Virus record (IMG/VR): IMGVR_UViG_3300009709_000002
Span: 296,228 to 360,227 of that record
DNA length: 64,000 nucleotides
From: a virus
Lineage: Duplodnaviria; Heunggongvirae; Uroviricota; Caudoviricetes
Direction: 5' to 3' (one strand)
A model generated the notes under the pieces. That model searched no databases. It was not told the DNA's origin and saw nothing but the letters and a program-made list of their open reading frames with translations. This document shows positions 26,799 to 43,077 of this stretch, piece after piece (within the stretch, counting starts at the first letter, position 1; each line of letters opens with the position of its first letter). The position numbers and the translations under genes are program-made.

Positions 26799-27103
26799 TA
26801 CACTCTGTCAAGTTCCAACTGCTCGGCCAATTTTGATACTAGACCTCGCGCTCGTTCCAGCTGGCGCAGAATGTCCTTCGATGAGTCATACTCGGCATAC
26901 AAACAATCACGCAGCTCTTCCACGTTGCCTGAAAAACGCTTGATGTGGTTGTTCATTTCTTCTAAACCTTTACGAGCATCTTTTAGAGCGGCCGCAGTCT
27001 TGCATGTTGTTTCTGCTGGTTTACACGTGGTGTAATACTCTTTGAGAGCTTCAGCAGATTCTGGGGTTTGTGGATTATGGGACATCGTCTTCCTCAATGA
27101 CAA
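26798..27103 (-). CDS. hypothetical protein (coiled-coil-like)
   Basis: ORF track. Confidence 0.45.
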   Translation of the reverse strand: MSLRKTMSHNPQTPESAEALKEYYTTCKPAETTCKTAAALKDARKGLEEMNNHIKRFSGNVEELRDCLYAEYDSSKDILRQLERARGLVSKLAEQLELDRV

Positions 27104-27278
27104 TGACTCCCGCCGCAGCTTCGATGGAGTCAGAGTCAGAAATTGATTTCAACAGCAATGCTATGGCTGCAATCCCGAACAGAAATGCGGCTGCCAGTAG
27201 CACGTAAAAGACGGTAGTGAAAGCTTCAATACCATCGAAAACCGTCATTGACATGTGATTCTGTGATGATGTAAAACG

Positions 27279-27500
27279 TTAGGCTTTTTGCTGATGTTCA
27301 AGCAGATCTGCGAGGGCTCGAAGCTCCGAAGGGCTAAATCTGAACATCATCGTCGGAGTGATGAACGTCCACGGTGAGATGATACCAAAGAGGTTTGGTT
27401 TCATGATCTCTGGCGTCATCGTTACCATTCGAAATCTAGTTTCCTCGCCATCACTATCTATTCCAACAAATTCCGATTGCTTCTTAATCTTTGCGATCAT
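27279..27500 (-). CDS. hypothetical small protein
   Basis: ORF track. Confidence 0.4.
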   Translation of the reverse strand: MIAKIKKQSEFVGIDSDGEETRFRMVTMTPEIMKPNLFGIISPWTFITPTMMFRFSPSELRALADLLEHQQKA

Positions 27501-27600
27501 TCTACCACCACTACAACTTACTTGTTATTTGCACTGCTTATGGTTCATTATATAACCAGCATCACCAGATGTACATTCTTAGATGATGCTGGTTACACTT

Positions 27601-28419
27601 TTAGAACTCCATGGCGTTAATGGCGCCGACATATTTGTTCATGTCGCATGCATAAAAACCAGACGAGTTGATCGCGTTGATTTCGATCACCTTCGGTCCT
27701 TCGTCTGTGTCGGCAATGTCTAACACAAAAGCACGATTCGGCTGCCACTTGTCGACCATCTTCTGAGCAAACTCTTTGATGAAAGGCATGACATCTGACG
27801 TGTAGTAGACATTGTGGCCAGCTTTGTACTGCGAGCCTGTCACTACTTCGCCATCAACCACGTAGAAACGAGTCTCGGTGTAAAGCTTGCTCAACGGAGC
27901 CACGATGATCTTATCCTCAGGCATCAACGTCGAAAATGAATTCGGCTGGTCGCATAGCGCTACTACTTTCGTACGCCATGCGTCAAAATCTTCCCAATCC
28001 ATCACTTGGCCTGAGAAAGACTTCAAATCGAGCGTCGGCCTAGTGAAGAACTTTGCGTCAGGATCGACAAGCATGTCTCTTGTGACTTCACGAAGAGTCG
28101 TGACCTTGCCACGCCAATTCAAACAGTCTTCACCGTAGTGCTTCATGGTGAGCTCATAATCCAGGTTGTCATCGAAGTAACCTGGCACCCAGCCCTTCTG
28201 ACGAGCGATCTTCCCGATCGCCGTTGAACCACAGACGTAGACGTGACCTTCTGGGTTGAGATCAGGTTCCATGTCATGTGCAAAATGGCGCACGCTGACG
28301 ATCTCGTGCGGAGTTTCTTGTCGTTCGAGTGCCGTCACTAAACCTTCAAAGGCAGCCTCTGCAAACAGATTCTTTTGTAGCACCCAAAACATCACATTCT
28401 CCTTATGTAGAGCACACAC
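27601..28419 (-). CDS. ATP-grasp-like enzyme
   Basis: C-terminal VLDIADTDEGPKVIEINA resembles the ATP-grasp Mg/ATP-binding segment. Confidence 0.45.
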   Translation of the reverse strand: MCALHKENVMFWVLQKNLFAEAAFEGLVTALERQETPHEIVSVRHFAHDMEPDLNPEGHVYVCGSTAIGKIARQKGWVPGYFDDNLDYELTMKHYGEDCLNWRGKVTTLREVTRDMLVDPDAKFFTRPTLDLKSFSGQVMDWEDFDAWRTKVVALCDQPNSFSTLMPEDKIIVAPLSKLYTETRFYVVDGEVVTGSQYKAGHNVYYTSDVMPFIKEFAQKMVDKWQPNRAFVLDIADTDEGPKVIEINAINSSGFYACDMNKYVGAINAMEF

Positions 28420-28469
28420 AAATGCTCCGTAAATGAATATTCTATCACTTAACGGAGCATTTGTAAACT

Positions 28470-28823
28470 TTAAGCTGATTCAGCCCATTCCCACTTGTAC
28501 ATCAAATCATTGAGCTCAACGATTTCAGGCACGCTTTTTGCGTCAGCAGCATTGCGGTGGATGTACTTGTGAAGATACTTCAAACGCTCTTCAGCTTGCT
28601 TGTACTCTTTCTCGTTTGAAACTGTGCTCACCCGCGGTGGTGGAAACGGCTTCCACCCTTTATTGTGCTTCCAGAACTCATCCATCGATTCTTTGTGAAG
28701 CTTCGCTGCGAGCTCAAAATTCCCATCAGCTAAAGCGTAGGCACATTGGGTATTTGGAGCGAGCCTTACGCCGTTGTAGTACTCTGGTACCGGGAGCTTC
28801 TTCTTTTCTTCAGCCATGACCAT
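28470..28823 (-). CDS. hypothetical protein
   Basis: ORF track. Confidence 0.45.
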   Translation of the reverse strand: MVMAEEKKKLPVPEYYNGVRLAPNTQCAYALADGNFELAAKLHKESMDEFWKHNKGWKPFPPPRVSTVSNEKEYKQAEERLKYLHKYIHRNAADAKSVPEIVELNDLMYKWEWAESA

Positions 28824-28826
28824 TCC

Positions 28827-29330
28827 TTAGAGCTCGGTCACAGTCTCCAAATCAACTCCAGCTTTGATCAATCTACGAAGGGCTGTCAAACGTCTACAGA
28901 ATTCTCGTTGCGTCAGCACTGTGTCGGCTTCTGAGTTGCGACCGATTGTATGTATAAGCACGGCATCGCCTGAGGCGATCAGTGCGTTTCTAAACTTTTC
29001 ATTCTGCTTCGTGATCTCGATGTAAATTCGATCGAGGAGCCGCTGGTATTCATCACTCTTACGCGGATATGCTACGCCTTTCCACCAGAGGGTTTGCTTT
29101 TGCTTCCAAGCGGAGTTGCGGTCTTGCCCACGCTTCTTAGCTGCCCGACCAACAAGCTTGCACACCTCAACTTGGATGTGTTCTTTGTCGAACTTTAAAG
29201 CTTGCAAAATACCTTCACGAGAAGCAACTTCGACCTCATCAAAGACGAATCCTTGTGGGCCGAAGTTACTTAGAGCAGCGGAAGGGTATCCCTTCCCTGA
29301 TCCTATGTCCATTGCTGGGTGTATCTCCAT
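28827..29330 (-). CDS. hypothetical protein (Gly-rich DIGSGKGYPS motif; possible nucleotide or SAM binder)
   Basis: Motif only. Confidence 0.35.
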   Translation of the reverse strand: MEIHPAMDIGSGKGYPSAALSNFGPQGFVFDEVEVASREGILQALKFDKEHIQVEVCKLVGRAAKKRGQDRNSAWKQKQTLWWKGVAYPRKSDEYQRLLDRIYIEITKQNEKFRNALIASGDAVLIHTIGRNSEADTVLTQREFCRRLTALRRLIKAGVDLETVTEL

Positions 29331-29336
29331 TGTGTC

Positions 29337-29561
29337 CTAACTTTCTACCATCAACTCCTCGAGGCGAGACTGAATGCGATCGGAGTAAATCCAATCCGAG
29401 GCGCAGCGACCATCGTTATCCGAAGTGCAACCCATCGAGCAGTTGTCAGCTACGTCGATAGCCTTGCTGAAGATCATGTTAGCCAAACAAACTGCAGCTT
29501 CCATGTTGTCGGTCGGAATGCCGATAGCTTCCATTTCCTTCTTCAATTCATCGCGAGTCAT
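29337..29561 (-). CDS. hypothetical small protein
   Basis: ORF track. Confidence 0.4.
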   Translation of the reverse strand: MTRDELKKEMEAIGIPTDNMEAAVCLANMIFSKAIDVADNCSMGCTSDNDGRCASDWIYSDRIQSRLEELMVES

Positions 29562-29591
29562 GATTTCCTCTGTTGCTAGTAGATAAGTCCT

Positions 29592-29909
29592 TTAATTGAG
29601 GGTGATCTCTTTGAACCCAAGCGAGTCGCAGAGGTAATACTTGGTGTCGATCTGCACGATATCGCCGACCGACATCGAACGCCAGTTGCGCGGTTTGTCG
29701 GAATTTTGGTCGTGAAACACTTTCTCACAGATGTCGAGATGATCATGCTCATCACGAGCAGTAGTATCAGCGATTGCGTTATAAAGCTTGGCCGTCCATG
29801 CACGTTGAACTGCGTCGATCTTCGGCATGAACGTGATGTTGAAATGATCAGCATCATTCTGCTTGCGACCTTCTACACAGTTGTAGTGGTGGAGAGTAAC
29901 CTTAGCCAT
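29592..29909 (-). CDS. hypothetical protein
   Basis: ORF track. Confidence 0.45.
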   Translation of the reverse strand: MAKVTLHHYNCVEGRKQNDADHFNITFMPKIDAVQRAWTAKLYNAIADTTARDEHDHLDICEKVFHDQNSDKPRNWRSMSVGDIVQIDTKYYLCDSLGFKEITLN

Positions 29910-29981
29910 TTTGCAACTCCGTGTTGTTTGACGATAGATTCATTATATCCCAAACAACACGGTTTGTAAACCGTTCTTCAA

Positions 29982-30758
29982 CTACGCGTTGCTAGTATCA
30001 GCAACGTTAATGACGAAACCATCTTCAAGCAAGACGCTTTTGTGGTGAGAAAGCAAGATAGAATTGCCGCCAAATGGAGCGCTACAAATTACCGACAAAA
30101 TGCGTGTGTGGTCATAGCCAGCCATTGAAACAATATACTCATACGTAGCTATCCTTGGAATAGTCACTGACCTGCCGTTTAACCAGACTGTCACATGTTT
30201 TACTTCTTCATCCTGTTTCGGCATCATCGACAGCTCTTCATCGCCTGGAATCAGTGACTTCAATGACGCTACTAGCTGTGGCCAATTGCGAACTACTAGC
30301 ATGCCATGTTCTGTGTATGGACCAACATAGCCATTATCAGTCACGGTGTCAAACTTAACTAGCTTGCCAGGAAACTTGTTTGCATTCGCCCACTGTGGAT
30401 GATCGTCAACTAGCACGTCATTCTTGCCACCAACAGCTCCCTTGTCAGGGACGATAAAGACCTTGCCCATCAACTTCGGCAAGTATGCATGAATCCAATA
30501 GAGCTTCTCAGATGCAGCGTTTGGAGCTTTGTCAGGAATCTTCGTGCAAACAAAGATTCGACCACGAGCATAGTTGATCAGCTCATTTACACCCTCAATC
30601 GCACCTGGCATCGGCTTCAAATGCTGATAGACGCCTGGGATCAGCTTAATTACCTTTGCTGGTTGGTCATACTCACGCATCGCTCGATCAAAGTCAGCGA
30701 TCACGCCATCCATGTCAAGATAGATGCGTGGTCCATCTTCAAAGATTTTCACACCCAT
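29982..30758 (-). CDS. HAD-superfamily 5'(3')-deoxyribonucleotidase-like protein with extra C-terminal domain
   Basis: N-terminal YLDMDGVIADF (HAD motif I, DMDGV); deoxyribonucleotidase-like spacing. Confidence 0.6.
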   Translation of the reverse strand: MGVKIFEDGPRIYLDMDGVIADFDRAMREYDQPAKVIKLIPGVYQHLKPMPGAIEGVNELINYARGRIFVCTKIPDKAPNAASEKLYWIHAYLPKLMGKVFIVPDKGAVGGKNDVLVDDHPQWANANKFPGKLVKFDTVTDNGYVGPYTEHGMLVVRNWPQLVASLKSLIPGDEELSMMPKQDEEVKHVTVWLNGRSVTIPRIATYEYIVSMAGYDHTRILSVICSAPFGGNSILLSHHKSVLLEDGFVINVADTSNA

Positions 30759-30760
30759 AA

Positions 30761-31399
30761 TCAGACTCCAGCAAACAAAGTTTCTTTGTCTTCAAAGCTG
30801 ATCGAGAGCACGTGATTCAACGCGTTGTTAGCGCGTGAAAGCTTCAGATTGACAGTCGCCGGCAGAACAACCTTGTCCAAGGTCTTTTGGTCAATCACGT
30901 AGAAATCATCACGCTTGATCGTACCATTGAGGTTCTGTGAATTCGACGGCCCGTAACGCAGCTCACCATAAGTCATAGCTATGAACTTCGCGTGCTTATA
31001 GATTGTACGCTCGAGAATGCCGTCACAACCGTCCAAGATTTCTACGACGATATCAAGCGCATAGTCTTCATTGAGCTTTTGGCGCTTCACTTGCTCTATC
31101 ACAGCTTGGCGCGCCTGCGACTTGAGATCGTCTTGGAATTCAATTCCGATGTAGTTAGCTTCAATGAAATCATCAAAGTTATCTACGCCTTGATCAACAG
31201 CAAGAATTTGATACACAAGTGGGATGAGGTGATCCGCTGCGACACGAGGCTCAGTAATACCGGCGTCAATGTCTACTGCTGTTTGAGGCTCGAGAAACCC
31301 TACTCGAAAGCGGTGTTCAATCTTCGGAGCTAAAATGGAAATCTTGTTTGGATTGAGCGGCTCAGCAGCCGCTTGAATTGTAAGAGGAGAAAGTGACAT
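30761..31399 (-). CDS. hypothetical protein
   Basis: ORF track. Confidence 0.45.
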   Translation of the reverse strand: MSLSPLTIQAAAEPLNPNKISILAPKIEHRFRVGFLEPQTAVDIDAGITEPRVAADHLIPLVYQILAVDQGVDNFDDFIEANYIGIEFQDDLKSQARQAVIEQVKRQKLNEDYALDIVVEILDGCDGILERTIYKHAKFIAMTYGELRYGPSNSQNLNGTIKRDDFYVIDQKTLDKVVLPATVNLKLSRANNALNHVLSISFEDKETLFAGV

Positions 31400-31416
31400 G
31401 CTTCATGATTCTTGTA

Positions 31417-32004
31417 CTACGTGGGTACTTCCTCGTGGAAATTCTCGGCCATCAGCACGAGTTCATCCAACGGTGCATTTTTGAACTTTTTGTAAACTTT
31501 CGCACGCAAACCATCATACGTGTGAGGGTGAGTCAGTGAAAGCAGCAGCTCTTTGATCGGAGCTGCATTACCACGCTTCACGTTGCATTTTTCACACATG
31601 CAACGCAGATTGTCGAGGCTATCTGTTCCACCAAGAGACACTGGGACGATGTGATCTTGAGTGAGCATCCGTATGATGCGATCTCTGTCCAGATTTGACC
31701 GCATCATGTAGGTGTTATCTTGCTCTTTACCCACTAAGTTCATCACCCAACCGAAAAGCTGGTCATTCTTGTGCCGCTCGATGCTGAAATGAGTTGCCTT
31801 CCAACCGCACTGAAAGCAGGTGATCTTACCCTTTTTCTCATACACTGATTTGAAGAGAGCAGCTCCACCAGGCTCTGCGATGTGCTTACCTTGAAAGATT
31901 CGCTGCTTCTTAGGCAGCTCCAACATCTTGAAACCTCTCACCATGTCAACTTCACCGAGTACGATGAAGCCGCCTTTACGACCTTTACGAGTTTGTTCAG
32001 CCAT
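31417..32004 (-). CDS. HNH endonuclease
   Basis: DHIVPVSLGGTDSLDNLRCMCEKCNVKRGN HNH motif. Confidence 0.7.
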   Translation of the reverse strand: MAEQTRKGRKGGFIVLGEVDMVRGFKMLELPKKQRIFQGKHIAEPGGAALFKSVYEKKGKITCFQCGWKATHFSIERHKNDQLFGWVMNLVGKEQDNTYMMRSNLDRDRIIRMLTQDHIVPVSLGGTDSLDNLRCMCEKCNVKRGNAAPIKELLLSLTHPHTYDGLRAKVYKKFKNAPLDELVLMAENFHEEVPT

Positions 32005-32040
32005 GGTGATGAAAGTGTAAGTTTACTTACTTACATTATA

Positions 32041-32688
32041 TCATACATAGTTCGGGTCGTGTAATTTTCTTAGCTGTTGCAACTCGGTGATAGTGCTGAT
32101 GAGAAATCCAGGAGTGATGATGGTGAGAAGCTCTGCATATTCAGCATCATCAAAGACCTGGCAAACGTGATCTTCGACAGAACCACCTTCAGGTTTGATG
32201 CCATATACAGGCAAGCCTGAGAACTCATCATTGAACTCATCAACTTCAAGATGATTGTCTACGAGTGTAATTTTGGCTAGATACAATGCTCGTTCAAGCG
32301 GTCCAGTTTCAGTCGAATGGCTGATTGGTGGATCGCTGAAGAACTTTGTGTTTATGAGATGTTTCTTGATGACGTAACGACACACAGCTTCAGCGCGTGT
32401 ATTGCCATAAGCTTCGGTGCACGTGACGTTGCCGTATTCCATCACCGGAACCATCCAGTCATCAATGCTTCCATGAATGAGAGGAATCTTGTACTTCTCG
32501 ATCATCTCATCGATGAAAGCAAGGTCAGCAGATGGTGCAAACTTCAACTTCTGATCAGCGTCTTCATTGCTGTTCTTCTGATAGCAGCTAACGACACTAT
32601 CGTGGCTGATAAGAATGACATCATAACCAAGTGCTATGCCGACCCAGTAGTCAAGCAGATGACCAGTGAGCTCGTGGAGCTGTTTCAT
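32041..32688 (-). CDS. DUF2591/NinX-like phage protein
   Basis: N-terminal LTGHLLDYWVGIALGY resembles the NinX family. Confidence 0.35.
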   Translation of the reverse strand: MKQLHELTGHLLDYWVGIALGYDVILISHDSVVSCYQKNSNEDADQKLKFAPSADLAFIDEMIEKYKIPLIHGSIDDWMVPVMEYGNVTCTEAYGNTRAEAVCRYVIKKHLINTKFFSDPPISHSTETGPLERALYLAKITLVDNHLEVDEFNDEFSGLPVYGIKPEGGSVEDHVCQVFDDAEYAELLTIITPGFLISTITELQQLRKLHDPNYV

Positions 32689-32702
32689 TTGATTGTATGG
32701 TC

Positions 32703-33146
32703 CTATTTAACCAGGAGCACAGGGTCATGCTGGACCATCTGGTACATTCTGGTGATATTGGCTGACTTACCACTTTCATAGATCATTAGGTCTACGTCCA
32801 GAACTTCAAATCCATACCGCTTGTAGAACTCTACAAGATCATGGTTGGAGAAGCTTGGATTAGTGGAAGAAACTTGATTGAGGATGTTGTACTTGTAGCC
32901 TTCAGCGAAGCGTAGCACTTCACCGAGCAAACGTCGAGCAACACCTTGCTGGCGATACTTTGCAGGAACATTGAGCCGATTGAAGAACAACATTGGCTCT
33001 TTGATACGATCACGTGGATCGAAAGACATCGCTTTCCAGAGATTAAGCGCGCCTTGATCCATTCGTGTGAGATGAGCGGTAGCGAGACCTACAGCTCCGA
33101 GACGGAGATTGATGTTGATTTCTTTACCAACGCTAGATACTTTTAG
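32703..33146 (-). CDS. GNAT-family N-acetyltransferase (start at MLKVSS)
   Basis: QQGVARRLLGEVLRFA acetyl-CoA-binding motif; GAGAGGTG RBS before ATG 33144-33146. Confidence 0.55.
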   Translation of the reverse strand, partial: LKVSSVGKEININLRLGAVGLATAHLTRMDQGALNLWKAMSFDPRDRIKEPMLFFNRLNVPAKYRQQGVARRLLGEVLRFAEGYKYNILNQVSSTNPSFSNHDLVEFYKRYGFEVLDVDLMIYESGKSANITRMYQMVQHDPVLLVK

Positions 33147-33164
33147 CATAATCACCTCTCGTTT

Positions 33165-33255
33165 GTTCTGGCGGGGCAGCGGGATTCGAACCCTGCTTGT
33201 GTGCTTTGGCATCACTGCGAATGAGCCGCTAATAGTTACCCTATCCCGAATGTCC
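33165..33255 (-). ncRNA. tRNA-like remnant (T-arm gggttcgaatccc plus gccccgCCA 3' end, no matching 5' acceptor)
   Basis: Upstream of the GNAT gene; no canonical cloverleaf found. Confidence 0.3.
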
Positions 33256-33431
33256 AGAGTAACGGATGCCCGCGTCGATGTCGGTCCACCTAGCACAACT
33301 TACGCCAGTAGCAGCTCATGGTGCTCATCCACCATTTTCCCAAACCCGGAACGCCGGCCCGAGCTGCTTCATTACTACCGGAATTTCACCGGTTCTATCG
33401 ACCTTTCCCACAGGTCAGCTGCCCCAAAACT

Positions 33432-33716
33432 TTAGTGGCGCGTGTAGTATGCTTCTCGTTCAGCTACTTCGCGATGCTCTTCGGAGGCTGCGCTAAAATC
33501 AACGCCGCCATTAGTCATCACAAACTGGCGAAAATCACCATACGCATCTTCAATTCGCCAAGCTCGCAAGTGAACTTGCTGTATCAGCAAATCATTTCGT
33601 GAGATAACGTTGATGTAGTACTCACCATAGTTATTCACCATCAAAAACGCCATCGGCGCTACTTCTTCATCATAAGACCCGGTGCGATTTATTCTCGCAT
33701 ACATCAAAGCACGCAT
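33432..33716 (-). CDS. hypothetical protein
   Basis: ORF track. Confidence 0.4.
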   Translation of the reverse strand: MRALMYARINRTGSYDEEVAPMAFLMVNNYGEYYINVISRNDLLIQQVHLRAWRIEDAYGDFRQFVMTNGGVDFSAASEEHREVAEREAYYTRH

Positions 33717-33725
33717 AGAGATTCT

Positions 33726-33929
33726 TCAACATTTCTGAGCCGCGTCCTTGTAGATCATCACCATCGTGTAATTCCAACCAATGATGAGCAATCCGATGAA
33801 AGCAACCCACTTGCTGAAACTGCCTCCAAGCAGTACTCCAACAGTAAGTAGAATGAACCCTACCACCAAGAGAAGCAGTGCTTGGGATGTCTTAACTTGT
33901 ATTTGATCGGCTGTCAATTTAGCCATCAC
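33726..33929 (-). CDS. small membrane protein
   Basis: Two hydrophobic helices. Confidence 0.45.
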   Translation of the reverse strand: MMAKLTADQIQVKTSQALLLLVVGFILLTVGVLLGGSFSKWVAFIGLLIIGWNYTMVMIYKDAAQKC

Positions 33930-33981
33930 TGCTATTCAATATGATTATTGTAACATAAGTGAGGCCAAATGTAAATTAGCC

Positions 33982-34203
33982 TTACCAGATCCTGCTTGCC
34001 GATTTAACGAGGTTGAACGGCGCACAGATGATCGACTTCAACACGAAAAATGTGACGGTCCACGCAAAGCTGATGTAGTTACCAAGCAGCAAGAATGGAA
34101 AAGAGATGACGATGATCAGACGACGAAGTAAATCATTTTCGATGGTGCTTAGCGTGAGCTTGATCGAATCATCGTCTTTTTGTTCCTGAGCTACTTCACT
34201 CAT
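33982..34203 (-). CDS. small membrane protein
   Basis: Hydrophobic helices. Confidence 0.45.
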   Translation of the reverse strand: MSEVAQEQKDDDSIKLTLSTIENDLLRRLIIVISFPFLLLGNYISFAWTVTFFVLKSIICAPFNLVKSASRIW

Positions 34204-34205
34204 GG

Positions 34206-34448
34206 TCAGTCCCTCTTAAGTCTGTACACCCTCGGTGAAAGGTATACTAGCTGGGCAAGAATCTCACCGGATTCACCGTCTTGCAATCCTAAGTACTTCG
34301 AGCCTTCGATGAGAACATCGTGGCTAGCTAAAACACTTACGCTAATGCTGGAGTCGAGGTCAGCTAAGATCTCTTGTCCTAACACACTAGCTGCATCAAC
34401 AACCTCACTCGGCTTGTTGAAAAATGAAGCAATCAAGTTAGCCAGCAT
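34206..34448 (-). CDS. hypothetical small protein
   Basis: ORF track. Confidence 0.4.
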   Translation of the reverse strand: MLANLIASFFNKPSEVVDAASVLGQEILADLDSSISVSVLASHDVLIEGSKYLGLQDGESGEILAQLVYLSPRVYRLKRD

Positions 34449-34929
34449 GCTGTGCTTTGATTATCTCTCTGGCCTTCATCAGCGCGATGCCAAGCCAGTT
34501 TGTTCCTTGCCACTGGGATTGATCTAGCGCTCTAGGATCATCTTCAGCTAATCCAATGCCCCAGATCTTGTCGTAAGGACTTGCCTCAACGATCAGATCA
34601 TCTCCAGACGACAGAATTTCTGCCAACAGTGCTTTGCTTTGGGTAAACTTCTCCACTAAAGCTGGCACCATCAGGTCGACTGCTACTTCAGCCCACGCTG
34701 CAGGATCAAAGCCTTTTACTTCCCGACCCAACCGCTTTTGTTCGCGAGGATCGTGTGACTTCATGATCTGCGCGGCCTTGACTTCGTCTCCGAACATCAA
34801 AGCCTTAACGTGCATCATGTACTGCTCGGAGCAATTGTATCGAATTCCGTTGAAAACGAAACTAGCTCCAGTGTACCAATTCGAGTACGGTCCGCCCCAA
34901 AACAGGACCATACCATTTGACTTCACCAT
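34438..34929 (-). CDS. NADAR (YbiA-like, DUF1768) domain protein
   Basis: FWGGPYSNWY...EQYMMHVKA...LVEASPYDKIWGIGL matches the NADAR signature. Confidence 0.65.
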   Translation of the reverse strand: MVKSNGMVLFWGGPYSNWYTGASFVFNGIRYNCSEQYMMHVKALMFGDEVKAAQIMKSHDPREQKRLGREVKGFDPAAWAEVAVDLMVPALVEKFTQSKALLAEILSSGDDLIVEASPYDKIWGIGLAEDDPRALDQSQWQGTNWLGIALMKAREIIKAQHAG

Positions 34930-34999
34930 GCAACCAACTATGTTCTTATTGTTATGCTTACTGCAAGGGAGAAGCCTAAACTTCTCCCCTTCCGACTCT

Positions 35000-35223
35000 T
35001 TACGCCTTCAGTGACTCGCCGTCCTTCAACTTCTGAAGGTACGTCTTGTCGTTGCGCTTCAGCACCGCCATGCGGGCCTTCTTCGTCTCATCGCTGTTCC
35101 AGCGAGTCTTCTTCTTCCCATGCTTCGGGATAGTCGACGCCGGACCCTTGCCGCCGTTCTTGTGGACCTTCGCCATTTCACGTGCTGCTGCCAGGCGTTT
35201 GGCATTCTTGCTTTGACGGGACA
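35000..35223 (-). CDS. highly basic small protein (possible DNA- or RNA-binding)
   Basis: K/R-rich; start chosen at MSRQSKNAKR. Confidence 0.4.
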
Positions 35224-35235
35224 TGCGTTTCCTCT

Positions 35236-35490
35236 TTATGATGCTGTTGAAAATTGCTCGGTCTGAGCGGTTTTGATAACTTCTACATGCTTGCGCATCC
35301 AACGCATTAGGTGTATAGCCTTCTCTTGCGCTTGGAAATTCGCATCACCTACGTCAGATGTTGGGACAGGGAATTCAAAACCGCACTCGGTTTTGTACCA
35401 CAATTCACCTTGACCGTCACGCAGACGAAAGTGAGAAAAATGGGCCAGCTTACCGTCCTTGACGGCATCCTTGATGCTAAACATACTCAA
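35236..35490 (-). CDS. hypothetical small protein
   Basis: ORF track. Confidence 0.4.
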   Translation of the reverse strand: MSMFSIKDAVKDGKLAHFSHFRLRDGQGELWYKTECGFEFPVPTSDVGDANFQAQEKAIHLMRWMRKHVEVIKTAQTEQFSTAS

Positions 35491-35499
35491 CTCTTACTA

Positions 35500-35576
35500 T
35501 GGTACTCGGTACAGGGATCGAACCTGTGCATTCTACCATGTCAAGGTAGCGATTTACCGCTCATCTTCAACCGAGT
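35500..35576 (-). tRNA. tRNA-Val (anticodon GAC), solitary
   Basis: 7-bp acceptor actcggt/accgagt plus CCA; T-arm acagg-ttcgatc-cctgt; anticodon stem ctacc/ggtag, loop ttGACat. Confidence 0.65.
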
Positions 35577-35729
35577 GTTAGGGTACTACTTTACAACTGG
35601 TTATCTTTGTTGCCGAGAAACTCTCGGTGTGTTTCACCGATCTTATTGAATTCCCATGACATGGCTGCTAGAAATGATCCTGCAACAGCGGCACAGAACA
35701 AAATAAGAACGGTGACCTTTGCATAATCT

Positions 35730-35927
35730 TCAATCGTCATAGTCACGTTCGACGATCACTACACCATCATCTTCGTACACCACTTCTTCGGTGACGTACA
35801 CTTCCACAGGCTGGTCATCTTCATAGATAACCTCGGTGCTGGAGAAACCGATCTCATCCCAGAACAACCAGGTGAGAAACGCAATGGCAAGCACTACAAT
35901 TACGAGAACTACTACGGCTGTTGTCAT
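35730..35927 (-). CDS. small membrane protein with acidic tail
   Basis: TM helix plus D/E-rich C-terminus. Confidence 0.4.
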   Translation of the reverse strand: MTTAVVVLVIVVLAIAFLTWLFWDEIGFSSTEVIYEDDQPVEVYVTEEVVYEDDGVVIVERDYDD

Positions 35928-35933
35928 GATGTG

Positions 35934-36191
35934 TTATGAGTTATCAGAGCCAGCCTTCAGCAATGTGCTGATATTCGAGCAAGTGACGTGAGACACGTTC
36001 TTACCGCGATACAGACCATCAGTTGCTTCCAGCTCTCTCAGCTTTTTGATCAACTTAATCGCGCCCTTCTCATCAGTGAAGGACAGCGATGACGCTTTTA
36101 CTTCATCCGTACCAGCATACAGCTTGTGTAGGCTGCGAGCAGTCCAATACACAAAAATTGCATCTGGGTCAAACGACTCATGTCGTGCCAT
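35934..36191 (-). CDS. hypothetical small protein
   Basis: ORF track. Confidence 0.4.
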   Translation of the reverse strand: MARHESFDPDAIFVYWTARSLHKLYAGTDEVKASSLSFTDEKGAIKLIKKLRELEATDGLYRGKNVSHVTCSNISTLLKAGSDNS

Positions 36192-36213
36192 GATGGTCTT
36201 ACAGAGTTAATCT

Positions 36214-36300
36214 TGGAGTCCCCGGCCGGAATCGAACCGTAAGCTTTCGCTGCGTTTTCGGCTTTGCAGGCCGCTGTGTGAACCACTCTACCACGGGGAC
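36214..36300 (-). tRNA. tRNA-Cys-like (anticodon GCA) with unusually long variable region
   Basis: Acceptor gtccccg/cggggac plus CCA; loop ctGCAaa; T-loop ttcgatt. Confidence 0.45.
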
Positions 36301-36650
36301 TTTGGGTTACTACTCGGTTATTTATACCATCAACGGAATCGTATCATGGCTGACGTGATAGTAAATCTCTTCATGCTTCTCACGTTCAGTCAATCGAGCA
36401 TTCAATGAAACCGCTTTGTCATTAAGCGTTGCCTTATGCTCAGACGCAGCTTGCGGAATGTCCTTCGATACGTCGAAATCAACGTAAGTGCGGCGGTACA
36501 GAACGTAAACTTGTTTCATTTGCGAATCCGTTTGTTTAACCGATAGATAGATTATATCTCACTCTTGAGTGTTTGTATAATTGTTTGCTTTGGATGCAAC
36601 AAGGCGGCCTTTCGACCGCCTCATTCACAGCTTAGACGTTAAACGTCTTG

Positions 36651-36974
36651 TCAGGTTTTGTCCTGATTGCGATGCAGCGTATTGTTGTCCGCCGGATGCT
36701 GCAGCTGCGGAAACTGCTTAAGCACAGTTTCCCGAGTCATCTCCGGGCCACCACATTGTGAGTGGTACTCGGGGCTCGTAAAGAAGCGAATGATGTCTTC
36801 CGCATGGCCTTCGATGTCGAACAGGTTGGAACTATTGCCTGCCGTCTTGGCCGTTCGGATGTCGATGCGGTACTTATGATGAAGCATTCCAATCTGCTCT
36901 TCATCCAACGCTGTGTTGAACTTTTGAGCATCAAGAGAGACGATACCACGATTTCTAGACGATTCGCCAGACAT
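36651..36974 (-). CDS. hypothetical protein (start MSGESS)
   Basis: GGAGATTGTG RBS; promoter at 37036-37064. Confidence 0.5.
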   Translation of the reverse strand: MSGESSRNRGIVSLDAQKFNTALDEEQIGMLHHKYRIDIRTAKTAGNSSNLFDIEGHAEDIIRFFTSPEYHSQCGGPEMTRETVLKQFPQLQHPADNNTLHRNQDKT

Positions 36975-37035
36975 ATCACAATCTCCACATAGTTGATGGA
37001 ACTTCAATCTACCGCAAAAATTAACGGTAGATGTT

Positions 37036-37064
37036 CATTATAACATCGTGATCTGGAAAGTAAA
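37036..37064 (-). promoter_or_regulatory. T4-early-type promoter
   Basis: GTTTAC...TGtTATAAT. Confidence 0.55.
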
Positions 37065-37124
37065 CAGGAATTCCTCGCCGGCCAACAAGTAGCATGCGAG
37101 GAATGAGGTGATTTCTGGTGGATT

Positions 37125-37448
37125 TTAGATGAGCTTGTGGATGCGATATTGCACATCGATAAGCCACGCGAGACGAGCTTCTGTCTTTGTCACGCCAACT
37201 GCAACGTTTGGCGCACCCTGGATAATCTTGATGTAGCCACCCTCGATGCTGATCATCGGAATTTCAAGCTCCCAAACCTCAACGGCGATCTGAGCACGCT
37301 TCAGCGCATTTTCCTGCGCGGTGCGCCCTGTGGGATGAAACACAGGCTTCGTGAATTCCTTCCCATCTGTCCAAGCAACGGTGTAGCCGTGACACTTGTA
37401 GACAAAGGGAATCTCCTGATCCGCAAGCCTAACGATAGGTCTAAGCAC
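37125..37448 (-). CDS. hypothetical protein
   Basis: ORF track. Confidence 0.45.
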   Translation of the reverse strand: MLRPIVRLADQEIPFVYKCHGYTVAWTDGKEFTKPVFHPTGRTAQENALKRAQIAVEVWELEIPMISIEGGYIKIIQGAPNVAVGVTKTEARLAWLIDVQYRIHKLI

Positions 37449-37457
37449 GGTAGCTCC

Positions 37458-37853
37458 TTACATGAGATTAAGACGAGCAGCTTCAGCGAACAGACGGGCT
37501 TGGTCACGAGTGCGGCCTTCAGCCATCAGCCTGGTGCAACCTTCAGCCATCAGCTCCTCAATTACGTCTTCGCGAAACTGAGGAGTGTTGAAGTATTCTT
37601 GAGCCTCTTCCTTGGCACTTTCAAACTCTGCTTGCGCTTTTCGCTCGGCGGCCACGGCGCGTTCGGCTTGTTCTGCAACTTCTTCATCATGCTCATGAAG
37701 CAGCTGATTGACGAAGCACTTATCAACGTTTGAGAGCTTGTCAAACATCGGACGATTTCCTGATGCACGCTCACGAAGATACAAGTCTTTGTTAATGATC
37801 AGGTGCATCTGGTGGATGCCGCGTTCAAAAAGAGCCAGATCGAAGTTTTTCAT
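37458..37853 (-). CDS. hypothetical protein
   Basis: Promoter upstream. Confidence 0.5.
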   Translation of the reverse strand: MKNFDLALFERGIHQMHLIINKDLYLRERASGNRPMFDKLSNVDKCFVNQLLHEHDEEVAEQAERAVAAERKAQAEFESAKEEAQEYFNTPQFREDVIEELMAEGCTRLMAEGRTRDQARLFAEAARLNLM

Positions 37854-37874
37854 CTTGAAGAACTGTTTTGTTGA

Positions 37875-37904
37875 CGTTAGAGTAATTATAACATCAACGG
37901 TTGA
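37875..37904 (-). promoter_or_regulatory. early-type promoter (ATTTAC...TATAAT)
   Basis: Motif match. Confidence 0.45.
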
Positions 37905-37921
37905 AGAAGTAAATGGCTTTC

Positions 37922-38218
37922 TTACTTCTTCAACACGACGTCGGTCGGATCCATGCCAGCAGCCATCGCCTTGGCGTACGCGTCGCCGTAGGAAGTTGCT
38001 TGAACTACACCAGCCTTGCGCTCAGAGCCGTCGGTGTCAGTCATGTAAACTTGCCAGTCTTTCTCCACCAGCTCAGTTTTGGCTTCTTCAACCAGGAGAG
38101 CGAGCATTTCATGAGTGAGAAAAACTTCGTTGCCAACAGCCGATTGAAGCAAAATACCAGCGTCGGTGATTTCGGCTTTGCGAAGGCCAGACTGTGCAAG
38201 CTGAAATTTCGTAATCAT
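37922..38218 (-). CDS. hypothetical protein
   Basis: AAGGAGTAAAGC RBS plus early promoter. Confidence 0.6.
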   Translation of the reverse strand: MITKFQLAQSGLRKAEITDAGILLQSAVGNEVFLTHEMLALLVEEAKTELVEKDWQVYMTDTDGSERKAGVVQATSYGDAYAKAMAAGMDPTDVVLKK

Positions 38219-38245
38219 GCTTTACTCCTTGGTTGACGTTAGAGT

Positions 38246-38276
38246 CATTATAACATCAACCGATGAAGAAGTAAAC
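38246..38276 (-). promoter_or_regulatory. T4-early-type promoter
   Basis: GTTTACttcttcatcggttgaTGtTATAATgactc then AAGGAGTAAAGC ATG. Confidence 0.65.
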
Positions 38277-38277
38277 A

Positions 38278-38640
38278 CTATTGAGGAGGCTTCACGATAA
38301 ACCAGCGCTCGAATGGTTTTTCTTCTAGCTCGCATGGTTCATAGTGCGGATCATGCACGATCTCATCTTTGATACAGACAACTGCATGATGAACTGGCGA
38401 ACCTATGAACCTCTTGCCGATCGCGATGTGTGGGAAACAACAGTAGAAAGAGTTGACAGCTTTGTAGGGAACGCAGATGAGAGTGTAACCACGAGCTTCC
38501 AGGAATTCTACAAACTTCTGTTTGTAGTCTTTTCCATATTGATGAGTGAAGCTGGGTACATCTTCAAGAGGTAGATCTAAAATCGTACAAACGCATGCAC
38601 GAAGACAGTCATAGGGATTGGGTTGAGTGACGGGTGTCAT
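38278..38640 (-). CDS. hypothetical protein (Cys/His-rich; possible cysteine-peptidase-like)
   Basis: Conserved C...H spacing only. Confidence 0.3.
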   Translation of the reverse strand: MTPVTQPNPYDCLRACVCTILDLPLEDVPSFTHQYGKDYKQKFVEFLEARGYTLICVPYKAVNSFYCCFPHIAIGKRFIGSPVHHAVVCIKDEIVHDPHYEPCELEEKPFERWFIVKPPQ

Positions 38641-38651
38641 ATCAGATATGA

Positions 38652-38741
38652 TGGCGCTGTGAGGTGGACTCGAACCACCTAACTCCCTCGGAACGCCTGC
38701 CCAGATTCCATTGAGGAGCTTTACCGCCTAAGCTACACAGC
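38652..38741 (-). tRNA. type-II tRNA (Ser or Leu; anticodon unresolved)
   Basis: 90 nt; T-arm ggtgg-ttcgagt-ccacc, CCA, long variable arm. Confidence 0.55.
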
Positions 38742-38746
38742 ATTGA

Positions 38747-38822
38747 TGGTCCCACCGAGAGGAATCGAACCCCTATTCCAGGTTTAGAAGACCCGTGTCT
38801 TAATCCGTTAGACGACGGTGAG
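38747..38822 (-). tRNA. tRNA-Arg (UCU)
   Basis: D-arm gtct-aacggatta-agac; loop ctTCTaa; CCA. Confidence 0.7.
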
Positions 38823-38834
38823 ATGATGTATTTA

Positions 38835-39221
38835 TCAGGATGATTTTTCGTACGCTTTGCACCGATCGATGCGTTCTTGCGTCCATCCTAGCAGCTTAAA
38901 AGCTTCATCGGCTAGCAAGTTGCAGTATTCATCGCTTGGCCAGTAAAAGCCTTGCGTCAGATGATTCTCAACCATGTGGCCGTGATGATGCATCAAGTCA
39001 CAGGTGTTGCAGAGAATATCATAGTCGATCGCGGCGTCTAGCTCATCTGCAATGAATTGTGCTATGGCGTAGAGCCTTGATCTCTTTGGGTTCATAACAA
39101 ATGGTCTTGTATGATTTCCCTTCGATTCATTGTTCTTCAGCCAAGCATACCGCTCGGCGTAGTCAGCTTTTTGCTGATCGGTGGCTTCATACGTGCCAGG
39201 GACTTTGAAATCCAGGATCAT
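38835..39221 (-). CDS. hypothetical protein
   Basis: ORF track. Confidence 0.45.
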   Translation of the reverse strand: MILDFKVPGTYEATDQQKADYAERYAWLKNNESKGNHTRPFVMNPKRSRLYAIAQFIADELDAAIDYDILCNTCDLMHHHGHMVENHLTQGFYWPSDEYCNLLADEAFKLLGWTQERIDRCKAYEKSS

Positions 39222-39481
39222 GATTGTTCAACTGGAAACAAAATAGCCGATTGTACGCTCACCTTCTCCGCAGTAGCGTGGTTCCACTCGATCGGGTCGC
39301 CGTACAAGAAATTACGGCGACGGATGACACGAAGCGTGATCCCCTTTGCTGTTTCTTTGATCGCTTCGCCTACAACAGTAGTTGCAAAGCCGCTCTTTTG
39401 ATTCGAATAGCCGTAGTGCTTATTCAAGAGCACTGGATTACCAAGAGCATCGAATTTTGAAGTAGTTACAAGATCACTCAT
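39218..39481 (-). CDS. hypothetical small protein
   Basis: ORF overlapping neighbour stop. Confidence 0.45.
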   Translation of the reverse strand: MSDLVTTSKFDALGNPVLLNKHYGYSNQKSGFATTVVGEAIKETAKGITLRVIRRRNFLYGDPIEWNHATAEKVSVQSAILFPVEQS

Positions 39482-39538
39482 ATCATTTACTCCAGTAGGC
39501 GATATGAAGATTGTATCCTATCGAGGCCTCAAAGTAAA

Positions 39539-40171
39539 TTAAAGCTTGGCCCAGTCCTCAAACCCAGCTTCTATCAATTCAGTTTGACAATCCACCAAAC
39601 TTCTATCAGCTTTGAGGTGCTTCTGGATTATCATAAGCACCTTTTCAAATGCTCTGTCTACGTCACTGAGCGGTTGTGATTGGTACCTAACTTTCTCTAA
39701 ACGCGGAACTTTTAATAGCTCAAGCACACCGATCGGCTTCTTCATCGATATGCCATCACCACGCATAAAGAAGGATTTCATAGTCTTGAATTCCTTGATA
39801 CCTTTGAGCGTGCTTACGTGGCTAGCTCTACCATCAACAAAGTAGCTTGAGAAGATTGAGGGAATCTTAGACCAGTCAGTGATGTCAAAATTCATGTACA
39901 AGTAGCTAGGATCTTCAACTACATTCTTGCTAGACCACACGTCATTTGAGAACTTAGGCTGTTCTTTCATCTTCATGGCCATCAGCTTCTCACCGCGGCT
40001 ATCATGGAACGTTATCTTATTGTCGCTGAATGAAAACTCAGTGCTAACGTATTCGTCTACGTATCTTGTGCCACCATTATGTGAGTCACCCATAATTTCT
40101 GTCACGTTCGCATCAATCCATTTTTCAAGAGGATTTTCGATTCTTGCTTCAATCAGGTCTTTTAGTTTCAT
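39539..40171 (-). CDS. Family-A paralog (dispersed copy)
   Basis: C-term CQTELIEAGFEDWAKL. Confidence 0.8.
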   Translation of the reverse strand: MKLKDLIEARIENPLEKWIDANVTEIMGDSHNGGTRYVDEYVSTEFSFSDNKITFHDSRGEKLMAMKMKEQPKFSNDVWSSKNVVEDPSYLYMNFDITDWSKIPSIFSSYFVDGRASHVSTLKGIKEFKTMKSFFMRGDGISMKKPIGVLELLKVPRLEKVRYQSQPLSDVDRAFEKVLMIIQKHLKADRSLVDCQTELIEAGFEDWAKL

Positions 40172-40180
40172 GTTTATCCT

Positions 40181-40256
40181 TGGGTCCGTCCATCCAGAAT
40201 CGAACTGGAGTCTAATCGCTCGGAACGACTTGTACTTTCCACTGTACTATGGACGA
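40181..40256 (-). tRNA. tRNA-Arg (CCG)
   Basis: D-arm gtac-agtggaaa-gtac; loop ttCCGag; T-arm tccag-ttcgatt-ctgga. Confidence 0.65.
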
Positions 40257-40618
40257 TTTACTGCTGGTAGTTGACAGAAGTCTGTTGGAATTTGTGCGAC
40301 AGAGCCTTGAACAGCAAGCGTTAGAGCAGTTTGGTAAGCTAACTGTTCTTCCTTTGAAGGATCCATCTTGTACGGATTGAATGCATTGAAGTTAGAGATC
40401 TTCTCAGGCATCTGATCCCACATATCTGCGGCCGCTTTGTAGATAGTAGCGGTGACTCTACGATCAACCTCAGCTGCATAGCGCTCGGCATCCAATTGTG
40501 GATCGTCGAACGGAATGGTTGAGACAACCTCACGTCTTGAAACGCTGCCCGCTGGAAACTTCTTCAGCATATTGGTCAGCTTATTTTGGATGTACGCAGC
40601 AGCGTCGATAGTATTCAT
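40247..40618 (-). CDS. hypothetical protein
   Basis: ORF track. Confidence 0.45.
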   Translation of the reverse strand: MNTIDAAAYIQNKLTNMLKKFPAGSVSRREVVSTIPFDDPQLDAERYAAEVDRRVTATIYKAAADMWDQMPEKISNFNAFNPYKMDPSKEEQLAYQTALTLAVQGSVAQIPTDFCQLPAVNRP

Positions 40619-40687
40619 GTCGGTATTTATTTCATCTCCAAAAACAACAAAAGGAGCCGAAGCTCCTTTTGTTTCATTTCAAACTAC

Positions 40688-41950
40688 TTAAGCTTGTGGA
40701 GCCCAAGTGATCGTGCCGGTGAAGCCTGTACCAGCACCGCTCGTTGCCGTTTGAGCAACTGGGTTAGCTGGAGTAGCGCCTGGAACTGCGTTACCTTGAC
40801 CAGTGATCGACAGACCTGTTACAATGCCGTTCGTACCGATTGTCGTTACCTTAACGATGACGCCATCAGCTAGGGTGATGGTGTTACCAACTGCGTAGCC
40901 TGTACCAGCCGCCGTTACTGCAACTGCTGAAGCGTACAGATTCGATTGCCATGCTAGTTGGAACTGAGCACCAAGACCAGCGTGGTTCGTCGAAACTTGA
41001 GGAACTGGGTTAGCTGGGAGAACTGTTTCCGAACCTGGGGTCGTTACAGTTACTGTAGCTGGGCCATAAGTCCACGACAGAGTGAACGTTGCACCGTGAC
41101 CTACGCCGCTCGATGTAACTTGAGCTTCTGGGTTGGTGAACGAAGTTGCAGAAGTGATGATACCTGGTTCGAACACAGTAACAGCAGCAACGCCGAGTGT
41201 CCATTCGAGGTAAACCGTTGCACCTGTACCAGCACCGCTTGTTGCAGTTGGGGTGATTGGTTCTGGTGGGAAGTTACCAGCAGCAGCGTCAGCCGAATCA
41301 ACAGCGCCTGCAGCAGTAATCGTCAGCGTTTCAATCACGCCGTTCGTACCGATCGTTGCAACCTTAGCTACAACGCCGTCTGGCAGAGTGAGTGTATCGT
41401 TAACTGCATAGCCCGTACCAGCTGCGCCGATCGTAGCACCAGTTGCGTAACCAGTTACGCCAGTGACCTTTAGTACGAGACCATCAAACAAGCTGATGTT
41501 TTCGCCAAGAACGTAACCTGCACCAGGTGCAGCAACGACAGCGTGAACATGACCAGCATTCAGAGTAGCGACAGTAACCACTGCACCACCTGGTAGAGTG
41601 ACTGTATCACCAACAGCATAACCAGAGCCTAGAAGTATAGGAGTAGCTGATTGAAGTGAATACGTTGGTGTACCAACATAACCACCAACACCAACAACCA
41701 GACCTGAACCAGGAATAGCAGCAACTGCTGCTGTAATTGCAGCGGTGATAGCCGTTACATCAGCACCTGGAATCAGAGCCAGGCCAATGCTTACACCGTT
41801 GAGAGCGAATTCATCCAGGATGAATTCGATATTGCTTGTTCCGAGCGGCAGTGTAGGATCTGTAAGACCACGGCCGTTCAATTGAAATGTATATTGTGAA
41901 AAGGTAGCAGACATTGTCTTATCTCCAAAAGGGCTTGCAATGATTGTCAA
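40688..41950 (-). CDS. Gly/Thr/Ala/Val-rich repeat protein (beta-rich ~40-aa repeats; structural or adhesin-like)
   Basis: Internal repeats AGTGYAV(G/N)(D/N)T(L/I)TL(P/A)DGV(V/I)xKV(A/T)TIGTNG(V/I). Confidence 0.55.
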   Translation of the reverse strand: MTIIASPFGDKTMSATFSQYTFQLNGRGLTDPTLPLGTSNIEFILDEFALNGVSIGLALIPGADVTAITAAITAAVAAIPGSGLVVGVGGYVGTPTYSLQSATPILLGSGYAVGDTVTLPGGAVVTVATLNAGHVHAVVAAPGAGYVLGENISLFDGLVLKVTGVTGYATGATIGAAGTGYAVNDTLTLPDGVVAKVATIGTNGVIETLTITAAGAVDSADAAAGNFPPEPITPTATSGAGTGATVYLEWTLGVAAVTVFEPGIITSATSFTNPEAQVTSSGVGHGATFTLSWTYGPATVTVTTPGSETVLPANPVPQVSTNHAGLGAQFQLAWQSNLYASAVAVTAAGTGYAVGNTITLADGVIVKVTTIGTNGIVTGLSITGQGNAVPGATPANPVAQTATSGAGTGFTGTITWAPQA

Positions 41951-42062
41951 AGCTATGCAAGCTGTACACCGCTAAACGAATATTTATTGGTGTTGACTTA
42001 TTGGAGATATTTATTCTACGTAGACTTAAGGCTCACCAGTTTCACCACATATTGCATACAGA

Positions 42063-42401
42063 TTAGGCTACTTTGGCCCGGCGAGCGGCTTTTGCCTCAG
42101 CAACCAACCGCTGAGCGGTAGCACGATCATTTGACTTGATAATTTTGATTACGCTTTCCATATCCGTTTCGGTGAAGCGACCATCATGAAACTCATCAGC
42201 ATCACGAAACCACAGCTTTTGTTCAAAAGGCCAGACATGCATGTAAGCGGTTGTCTCGGTCAGATCCTTCGCGTGCTGCCCTTGACCAAAGAGCACATAG
42301 ATACCACCATCTTGGTGCTTGAAGTACTTTGGTGTTTCTCCTAGTAAATTGACAAGCGGATCAAGATCAACGTCAAACGTCGAGTTTTCATTTGTAGACA
42401 T
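42063..42401 (-). CDS. hypothetical protein
   Basis: ORF track. Confidence 0.45.
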   Translation of the reverse strand: MSTNENSTFDVDLDPLVNLLGETPKYFKHQDGGIYVLFGQGQHAKDLTETTAYMHVWPFEQKLWFRDADEFHDGRFTETDMESVIKIIKSNDRATAQRLVAEAKAARRAKVA

Positions 42402-42815: not shown

Positions 42816-42824
42816 AATAACTTT

Positions 42825-43054: not shown

Positions 43055-43077
43055 TGTTTTCCTCTATGGGAGATGTT

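Follow-up and report, generated by a model that had tools for sequence, protein, structure and literature searches.

Does the NADAR gene of a large tailed phage encode an enzyme that reverses ADP-ribosylation by the host, and why does the same phage carry a second member of the superfamily? We addressed this question in a stretch of 64,000 nucleotides (hereafter the window) from a virus of the class Caudoviricetes (IMG/VR record IMGVR_UViG_3300009709_000002, positions 296,228 to 360,227), which represents 64 kb of a much larger phage genome. An initial annotation, made from the letters and their open reading frames (ORFs), had noted a NADAR/YbiA signature in one gene of the window and proposed that its product might undo a defence based on ADP-ribosylation. 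This gene (the window NADAR, Table 1) is a real NADAR enzyme gene of a large phage, with a predicted NADAR/YbiA fold, and its product is predicted to be catalytically competent. It shares the window with a second gene of the T4 gp30.3 type.

The signature was confirmed by profile searches. The hidden Markov model PF08719 (NADAR) matched the window NADAR far above its cut-off (E = 1.4e-45; 155.9 bits against 35.1; profile 11-162 of 163), as did phrog_1017 in the PHROG database (E = 4.3e-45). Chance cannot account for the NADAR match and the coordinates of the ORF are exact. When the window NADAR was aligned with 49 homologues from the databases (48-76% identity), 31 columns were invariant, and an AlphaFold2 model built on this 50-sequence alignment reached a predicted local distance difference test score (pLDDT) of 97.5 and a predicted template modelling score (pTM) of 0.92. 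Using Foldseek, the model was matched to the Phytophthora nicotianae NADAR in complex with ADP-ribose (PnNADAR; 8BAU; template modelling (TM) score 0.86, 35% identity) and to Escherichia coli YbiA (2B3W; TM 0.78), with no further PDB match at E <= 0.001. The same ranking was obtained with a profile built from the 50 homologues and searched against PDB chains (8BAU, 3e-32, 115 bits; YbiA 2B3W, 1.4e-16, 64 bits).

The predicted active site was also intact. We took the ADP-ribose contacts of PnNADAR from Schuller et al. (PMC11543638), to whose numbering 2 is added to give that of the PDB chain, and mapped them via HMMER and MAFFT alignments. Contacts E43, K50, K75, G78, R79, V81, W89, E125, D130 and W133 are identical in the window NADAR (E35, K42, K65, G68, R69, V71, W79, E115, D120 and W123, respectively) and all were invariant across the 50-sequence alignment; Y84 is substituted by F74. 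Of the retained residues, E35, K42, K65, R69, W79, E115, D120 and W123 are those associated with catalysis or with the binding of phosphate and ribose. The third catalytic position sorts the superfamily into Glu (NADAR and YbiA families), Asp (DarG1, or BC4488) and His (T4-type phage NADARs) branches (PMC11543638, PMC12945103), and is Glu (E115) in the window NADAR. The protein is a bare 163-residue domain with neither an N-terminal extension nor an effector or sensor module. It matched PF08719 only, and not PF08010, the model which together with the His marks the gp30.3 type. The family profile reached none of the DarG1-type chains in the PDB at E <= 1, and a Pfam scan of ~95 of the ~100 minus-strand ORFs in the window (the ORFs scanned, below) detected no DarT, ADP-ribosyltransferase, macrodomain or riboflavin gene. 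In addition, the window NADAR has an insertion after the WGIG motif that is common to PnNADAR and phage NADARs and missing from YbiA. Given the Glu at the third position, the lack of an N-terminal extension, the unreached DarG1 chains and the closer match to PnNADAR than to YbiA, the window NADAR is, judged by its sequence, a stand-alone Glu-type NADAR of the NADAR/YbiA branch. This established its domain, its modelled fold, an intact active site and its stand-alone status, alongside the phage context and the homology to validated enzymes described below.

Such enzymes have been characterised in some detail. Johannesman et al. (PMC11825919) showed that AdfN-T4 (T4 gp30.3) and two unrelated phage NADARs, AdfN-Bas32 and AdfN-Bas60, free DNA of guanine-linked ADP-ribose and also neutralise DarTG1; with AdfN-Bas60 and AdfN-Bas32, DarT1 was neutralised and phage plating on DarTG1 hosts was restored. 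In the same study, most non-T4 phage NADARs clustered with bacterial NADARs that are neither YbiA nor DarG1. Every NADAR family tested hydrolyses guanosine-ADP-ribose on DNA and RNA (PMC11125620, PMC11833690), including the four E. coli and phage subtypes that were all active in vitro in the work of Cihlova et al. (PMC11125620). For comparison with AdfN-Bas60 we used a 183-residue protein of that type from the phage collection (L176:553-1104), which matches its EmilieFrey (Bas61) counterpart with 100% identity and the one of PaulScherrer with 98.9%; Bas60-62 are phi92-like E. coli phages. The NADAR of Vequintavirinae phage A73 was considered as a proxy for AdfN-Bas60 and dropped, the variant being found in six records only and Bas60-62 being phi92-like. 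At 31% identity (E = 2e-24), the window NADAR and the AdfN-Bas60 type could be aligned almost from end to end, and the catalytic motifs are shared. Net charge was also tried as a clue to a nucleic-acid versus a small-molecule substrate and was rejected because the validated AdfN-Bas60 type is as acidic as the window NADAR (isoelectric point (pI) 5.9 and 5.6, respectively).

From this homology and these analogies, we favour, with moderate confidence, an AdfN-like counter-defence in which the window NADAR would serve as an orphan N-glycosidase removing base-linked ADP-ribose from phage nucleic acid. If PnNADAR is a guide, K42, R69, W79, W123 and D120 would grip the pyrophosphate, F74 would stack on the adenine, and E35 and E115 would act at the distal ribose, by positioning and attack. 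Cleavage would fall on the N-glycosidic bond that joins ADP-ribose to the nucleobase, at guanine N2 and probably at cytosine too. During infection, marks set on phage DNA (or RNA) by a host DarT1-like or pierisin-like ADP-ribosyltransferase would be erased and replication restored, making the window NADAR a functional equivalent of AdfN. Like AdfN, it is a phage-encoded orphan with no cognate toxin among the ORFs scanned. Its substrate, the timing of its action and its part in counter-defence are what we infer here. The role suggested in the initial annotation agrees with the AdfN experiments and, as it has been published by Johannesman et al. (PMC11825919), is a reasonable idea that is already known for other phages.

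Several observations weigh against this proposal. Two PnNADAR contacts are lost in the window NADAR, where R93 is replaced by A83 and D86 by P76, and the enzymes validated in vivo are no closer to it than 31-35% identity. Activity in vitro does not guarantee rescue in vivo, which varies with the NADAR subtype: YbiA and T4 gp30.3 were active in vitro, yet uninfected cells were not rescued from DarT1 (PMC11125620). A gp30.3-type NADAR is already carried in the window, so the window NADAR may have another target. Finally, the NCBIfam model TIGR02464, which NCBI names a riboflavin-intermediate N-glycosidase, also scored above its cut-off (139.1 bits against 73.7).

This last match, together with the third-position Glu shared with YbiA, would fit a YbiA/COG3236-like metabolic enzyme that destroys reactive early riboflavin intermediates in the infected cell, as damage control or as directed overflow. 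A riboflavin role for YbiA is cited in PMC11543638, and many phage homologues are labelled 'GTP cyclohydrolase II' or 'YbiA'. However, PnNADAR (35% identity) and the phage NADARs are closer to the window NADAR than is YbiA (28%), as the bit and TM scores given above also indicate for PnNADAR, and the WGIG insertion is found in the former and not in the latter. No riboflavin gene is fused to the window NADAR or was found among the ORFs scanned, and YbiA too hydrolyses guanosine- and cytidine-ADP-ribose (PMC11125620, PMC12945103). As a domain model, TIGR02464 picks up Glu-type NADARs other than YbiA as well, and the 'GTP cyclohydrolase' labels are probably an error inherited from the rib-fusion proteins on which the family definition rests. 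We consider a riboflavin-directed function unlikely.

The second NADAR gene, missed in the initial annotation, shifts the question from whether an anti-DarT enzyme is present to why there are two. Its product matched PF08010 (Phage_30_3; E = 4.6e-51, 172.7 bits), was 37% identical to T4 gp30.3 (E = 6e-27) and retained E36, K43 and the characteristic H123 of T4 as E39, K46 and H127. BLASTP found no similarity between the two NADAR proteins of the window. The best phage matches of the gp30.3-type gene include T4-like phages and, as for other accessory genes of the window, the best matches were alphaproteobacterial phages. The closeness of the NT5C gene to the gp30.3-type gene recurs in some other phages: NT5C adjoins the gp30.3 homologue in L166, and a deoxyribonucleotidase is annotated at this place in Vibrio phage PG216.

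The pair of Glu-type and gp30.3-type genes was also present in relatives (L002 and the P0001 contig). Beyond these, no gp30.3 homologue occurred within 10 kb of NADAR at any of 80 IMG/VR NADAR loci, and no NADAR within 10 kb of a gp30.3 homologue at any of 10 IMG/VR gp30.3 loci. A concatenated query matched 2230 places in 2228 records of the phage collection, while searched separately NADAR was found in 723 records and gp30.3 in 1507. As 723 and 1507 sum to 2230, two of the 2228 records must hold both types (E <= 1e-5), an estimate that rests on tblastn with two queries and that more distant NADAR subtypes would escape. Vibrio phage D479 is one of them, with its two genes 17 kb apart.

What the pair might do is suggested by published substrate ranges. 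In the assays of Mikolcevic et al. (PMC12945103), guanosine-ADP-ribose and cytidine-ADP-ribose alike were removed from DNA and RNA by Glu-type NADAR and YbiA enzymes, and T4 gp30.3 and DarG1 removed guanosine-ADP-ribose only. As these ranges differ, a division of labour is possible. The chemistry would be the same and the target another: the Glu-type enzyme would take cytosine and/or RNA marks, set by pierisin/ScARP-like or unknown defences or toxins, and leave DarT1 guanine marks on DNA to the His-type enzyme. The placing of an E115 and an H127 enzyme 5 kb apart, the pair in the relatives, the rarity of co-residence and the failure of gp30.3 and DarG1 to remove cytidine-ADP-ribose all speak for this. 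On the other side, AdfN-Bas60, the sole Glu-type phage NADAR tested in vivo, counters DarT1 on DNA (PMC11825919). The pair could be accounted for just as well by redundancy, or by coverage of different DarT variants. To our knowledge, there is no natural anti-phage defence that ADP-ribosylates cytosine. We give such a target for the window NADAR, the main alternative to the AdfN-like reading, a minor, though real, chance. It is likewise only tentatively that we picture one accessory island as a two-enzyme kit, with a His-type enzyme for guanine marks and a Glu-type enzyme adding cytosine- and RNA-linked ADP-ribose. If true, this would imply that hosts defend themselves by base ADP-ribosylation beyond the guanine chemistry of DarT1.

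The T4-like matches of the gp30.3-type gene bear on a further alternative, self-control, in which the window NADAR would limit or reverse ADP-ribosylation performed by ADP-ribosyltransferases that the phage itself encodes, on the model of Alt, ModA and ModB in T4. In T4, alt lies near gene 30.3, and the 64 kb visible here belong to a much larger genome. Against this, no ADP-ribosyltransferase domain was found among the ORFs scanned, and the substrate of known NADARs is ADP-ribose linked to bases, as opposed to protein arginine or phosphate ends (PMC11833690). Self-control is accordingly a very improbable explanation.

We also examined the genomic setting of the window NADAR. The gene lies inside a long one-directional minus-strand block of small ORFs and tRNA genes, and its phage origin is supported by the 30 tRNA genes, many PHROG matches, the T4 gp30.3 homologue and relatives in IMG/VR and among phages. 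Downstream follow, in order, an 80-residue ORF, three small ORFs, the GNAT gene, a NinX-like ORF, the HNH gene, a 212-residue ORF, the NT5C/HAD nucleotidase gene and a YodL-like ORF. The initial annotation had noted the NADAR next to GNAT, HNH and HAD-nucleotidase genes, a setting that it took to fit an accessory anti-defence or nucleotide-salvage island. All three genes are indeed present and on the same strand, but they lie 1.1 to 4.5 kb downstream and are not immediately adjacent, because four small ORFs intervene. We treat them as context only, a functional link to the NADAR not being established. The GNAT probably starts at an internal ATG near 33149, giving ~148 residues (145 in the relatives), and the HNH endonuclease is probably of the homing type.

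In two relatives (P0001 and P0002, with NADARs 76-77% identical), the order NADAR, 79-residue ORF, small ORFs, GNAT, HNH and NT5C is kept, and L002 is collinear with window positions 50088 to 25970 (65-76% nucleotide identity). In a linkage survey of the 80 IMG/VR NADAR loci with 10-kb flanks, none of 26 neighbouring window ORFs used as queries was a recurrent NADAR partner, the two close relatives excepted, and none of ten NADAR neighbours matched a PADLOC partner component. The 'island' is therefore a trait of this lineage and not a conserved module. The same data bear on the idea that the window NADAR is part of a system for defence or superinfection exclusion carried by the phage, in the manner of PDC-M42 and DS-32, two candidate systems that contain NADAR. 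NADAR domains do occur in validated defence proteins (PMC13092281), the PADLOC model PDC-M42C matched the window NADAR with 135 bits and NF053876 ('NADAR family anti-phage protein') matched weakly. The latter score (46.5) is far under its cut-off of 240, only the C-component model of PDC-M42 matched, and the bare domain carries no effector or sensor module, which leaves this idea the least probable of those considered here.

The 80-residue ORF is probably co-translated with the window NADAR, although it is uncertain whether it should be counted as part of the same feature. Counterparts with ~55% identity and the same overlap arrangement are kept in L001 and L002. No match to it was found in Pfam, PHROG or PADLOC, and it was absent beside NADAR from the other 80 viral loci and from 80 genome loci (mostly metagenome-assembled). 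Upstream of the gene, a hairpin (Table 1) might act as a weak terminator or stabilise RNA; it lacks a following U-run and drew no call in the terminator scan. Stem-loops occupy the same place in the window, in L001 (~1690-1740) and in L002 (~9950-9990), and as the three stems differ in sequence, the structure is kept and the sequence is not. Scans for promoters and terminators around the gene gave nothing informative, and a candidate shared upstream promoter motif, CAGTAAGNATAAYAAT, was dropped since its frequency was no higher than chance.

Table 1 Features of the window (positions count from its first nucleotide; aa, amino acids; nt, nucleotides)
Feature	Position	Strand	Remarks
Stand-alone Glu-type NADAR gene	34438..34929	minus	163 aa, ATG start, stop codon included
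T4 gp30.3/AdfN-T4-type (His-type) NADAR-superfamily gene	28827..29330	minus	167 aa, ~5 kb from the window NADAR
Acidic 80-aa ORF	34206..34448	minus	pI 4.6; start overlaps the NADAR end by 11 nt
Intergenic hairpin	34967..34988	minus	GGGAGAAG-TTTAGG-CTTCTCCC; between upstream 100-aa basic ORF and NADAR start
GNAT acetyltransferase	32703..33296	minus	PF13508 (29.4 bits), PF13673 and PF00583, all marginally over cut-offs
HNH endonuclease	31417..32004	minus	PF14279 (E~1e-10), PF01844 (E~1e-9), many HNH PHROGs
212-aa ORF	30761..31399	minus	between HNH and NT5C; weak 'tail tube' PHROG match only
NT5C-type (HAD superfamily) 5'-deoxyribonucleotidase	29982..30758	minus	PF06941, 44.4 bits vs 24.8; near the gp30.3-type gene
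YodL-like ORF	29592..29909	minus	accessory gene
R2K-clade ATP-grasp	27601..28419	minus	accessory gene
SPFH/Band-7	60294..61109	minus	accessory gene
phrog_1735 protein	45988..48486	minus	695 aa; DUF8224 in relatives
RF-1/ArfB-like GGQ protein	48556..49014		translation gene near tRNAs
CCA-adding tRNA nucleotidyltransferase	61263..62444		translation gene near tRNAs
tRNA genes (30)	35500..58189	minus	most packed at 52.5-58.2 kb
Paralogous ORFs (16)	254..10229	minus	unbroken tandem
Paralogous ORF (isolated copy)	39539..40171	minus	
Paralogous ORFs (three)	50160..52023	minus	tandem

Other features of the window were recorded alongside. The 212-residue ORF has no counterpart in L002, where NT5C directly follows HNH, and the window NT5C has a C-terminal extension of ~60 residues relative to the relatives. 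A nucleoside 2-deoxyribosyltransferase-like protein is also encoded. Proteins of phiCbK-like Caulobacter phages and of Ralstonia phiRSL1 share 52% identity with the phrog_1735 protein. Its gene and the next ORF lie between the gp30.3-type and R2K ATP-grasp genes in L002 (L002:14808-17236) and ~17 kb away in the window, a shift in position that reflects a rearrangement between close relatives. Many of the tRNA isoacceptors occur in duplicate (Val, Thr, Asn, Phe, Glu, Asp, Ile, Lys, Pro and Gln). The window further holds 20 paralogous ORFs of ~190-240 residues with low GC content (0.37-0.43) and a C-terminal motif of the form ..CQxELIDAGFEEyAKL. Members of this family had no match in PHROG (two searched), in Pfam (five searched) or by tblastn in the 50,697 phage records (one searched); one member occurs in L002 (6853..7470).

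Homologues of the window NADAR itself were detected in 723 of the 50,697 phage records, with a best identity of ~51%. These included Staphylococcus, Listeria, Enterococcus, Bacillus, Escherichia, Klebsiella, Xanthomonas, Stenotrophomonas and Vibrio phages, and such presence across many hosts fits a mobile accessory gene. Beyond phages, homologues were spread widely through bacterial genomes and metagenome-assembled genomes (40-54% identity). At the nucleotide level, megablast of window positions 33000..37000 against the phage collection gave no match, and sensitive blastn of positions 27000..34990 recovered short patches only; the phage itself is absent from this set of isolates. Many phage genomes annotate the homologue as 'GTP cyclohydrolase (II)' (H1, H12-H15, H24, H27, H34-H39) and others as 'YbiA'.

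A phage NADAR alone is thus an expected annotation now. Here the annotation is solid, and the proposed function is what textbook knowledge since 2023-2025 leads one to expect. Should the role hold, the window NADAR would be a divergent, metagenome-derived addition to the enzymatic 'orphan antitoxin' counter-defences of phages, now in a large tRNA-rich phage. More is to be gained from the pair: two enzymes with different published substrate ranges, unrecognisable as kin by sequence, provide a natural system in which redundant and specialised subtypes can be told apart. The pair also lets one ask whether ADP-ribosylation of cytosine or RNA serves bacterial immunity.

Among known systems, DarG1 (the DarTG1 antitoxin, BC4488 family, 8BAT) belongs to the superfamily of the window NADAR and would, by analogy, share guanine-N2 de-ADP-ribosylation with it. 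The Asp at the catalytic position, the N-terminal extension and the adjacent DarT1 of DarG1 are all lacking here. T4 gp30.3/AdfN-T4 (PF08010) has the superfamily and the proposed role as a counter-defence de-ADP-ribosylase in common with it, and differs in its His at the third catalytic position and in showing no significant sequence similarity (E = 0.005 to 0.04). AdfN-T4 also needs a T-even-specific factor (PMC11825919) and cannot remove cytidine-ADP-ribose (PMC12945103). E. coli YbiA/COG3236 (2B3W; 28% identity, E = 1.6e-10) has the same Glu-type active site without the insertion after WGIG; ybiA belongs to an operon under LexA control and serves the host as a housekeeping or DNA-damage gene (PMC11125620), and the window offers no riboflavin context. 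The NADAR of P. nicotianae var. parasitica (8BAU, PMC11543638) is the best match of solved structure (35% identity, pairwise E = 2e-26), although it is eukaryotic, has a longer insertion after WGIG and does not share its R93 and D86. Two additional insertions mark the AdfN-Bas60 type near its N-terminal half; it is only 31% identical and comes from another phage lineage with probably another host. In its build, however, it resembles the window NADAR: both are phage-encoded, single-domain, acidic Glu-type proteins that carry the VEASPYD motif and have no toxin gene beside them.

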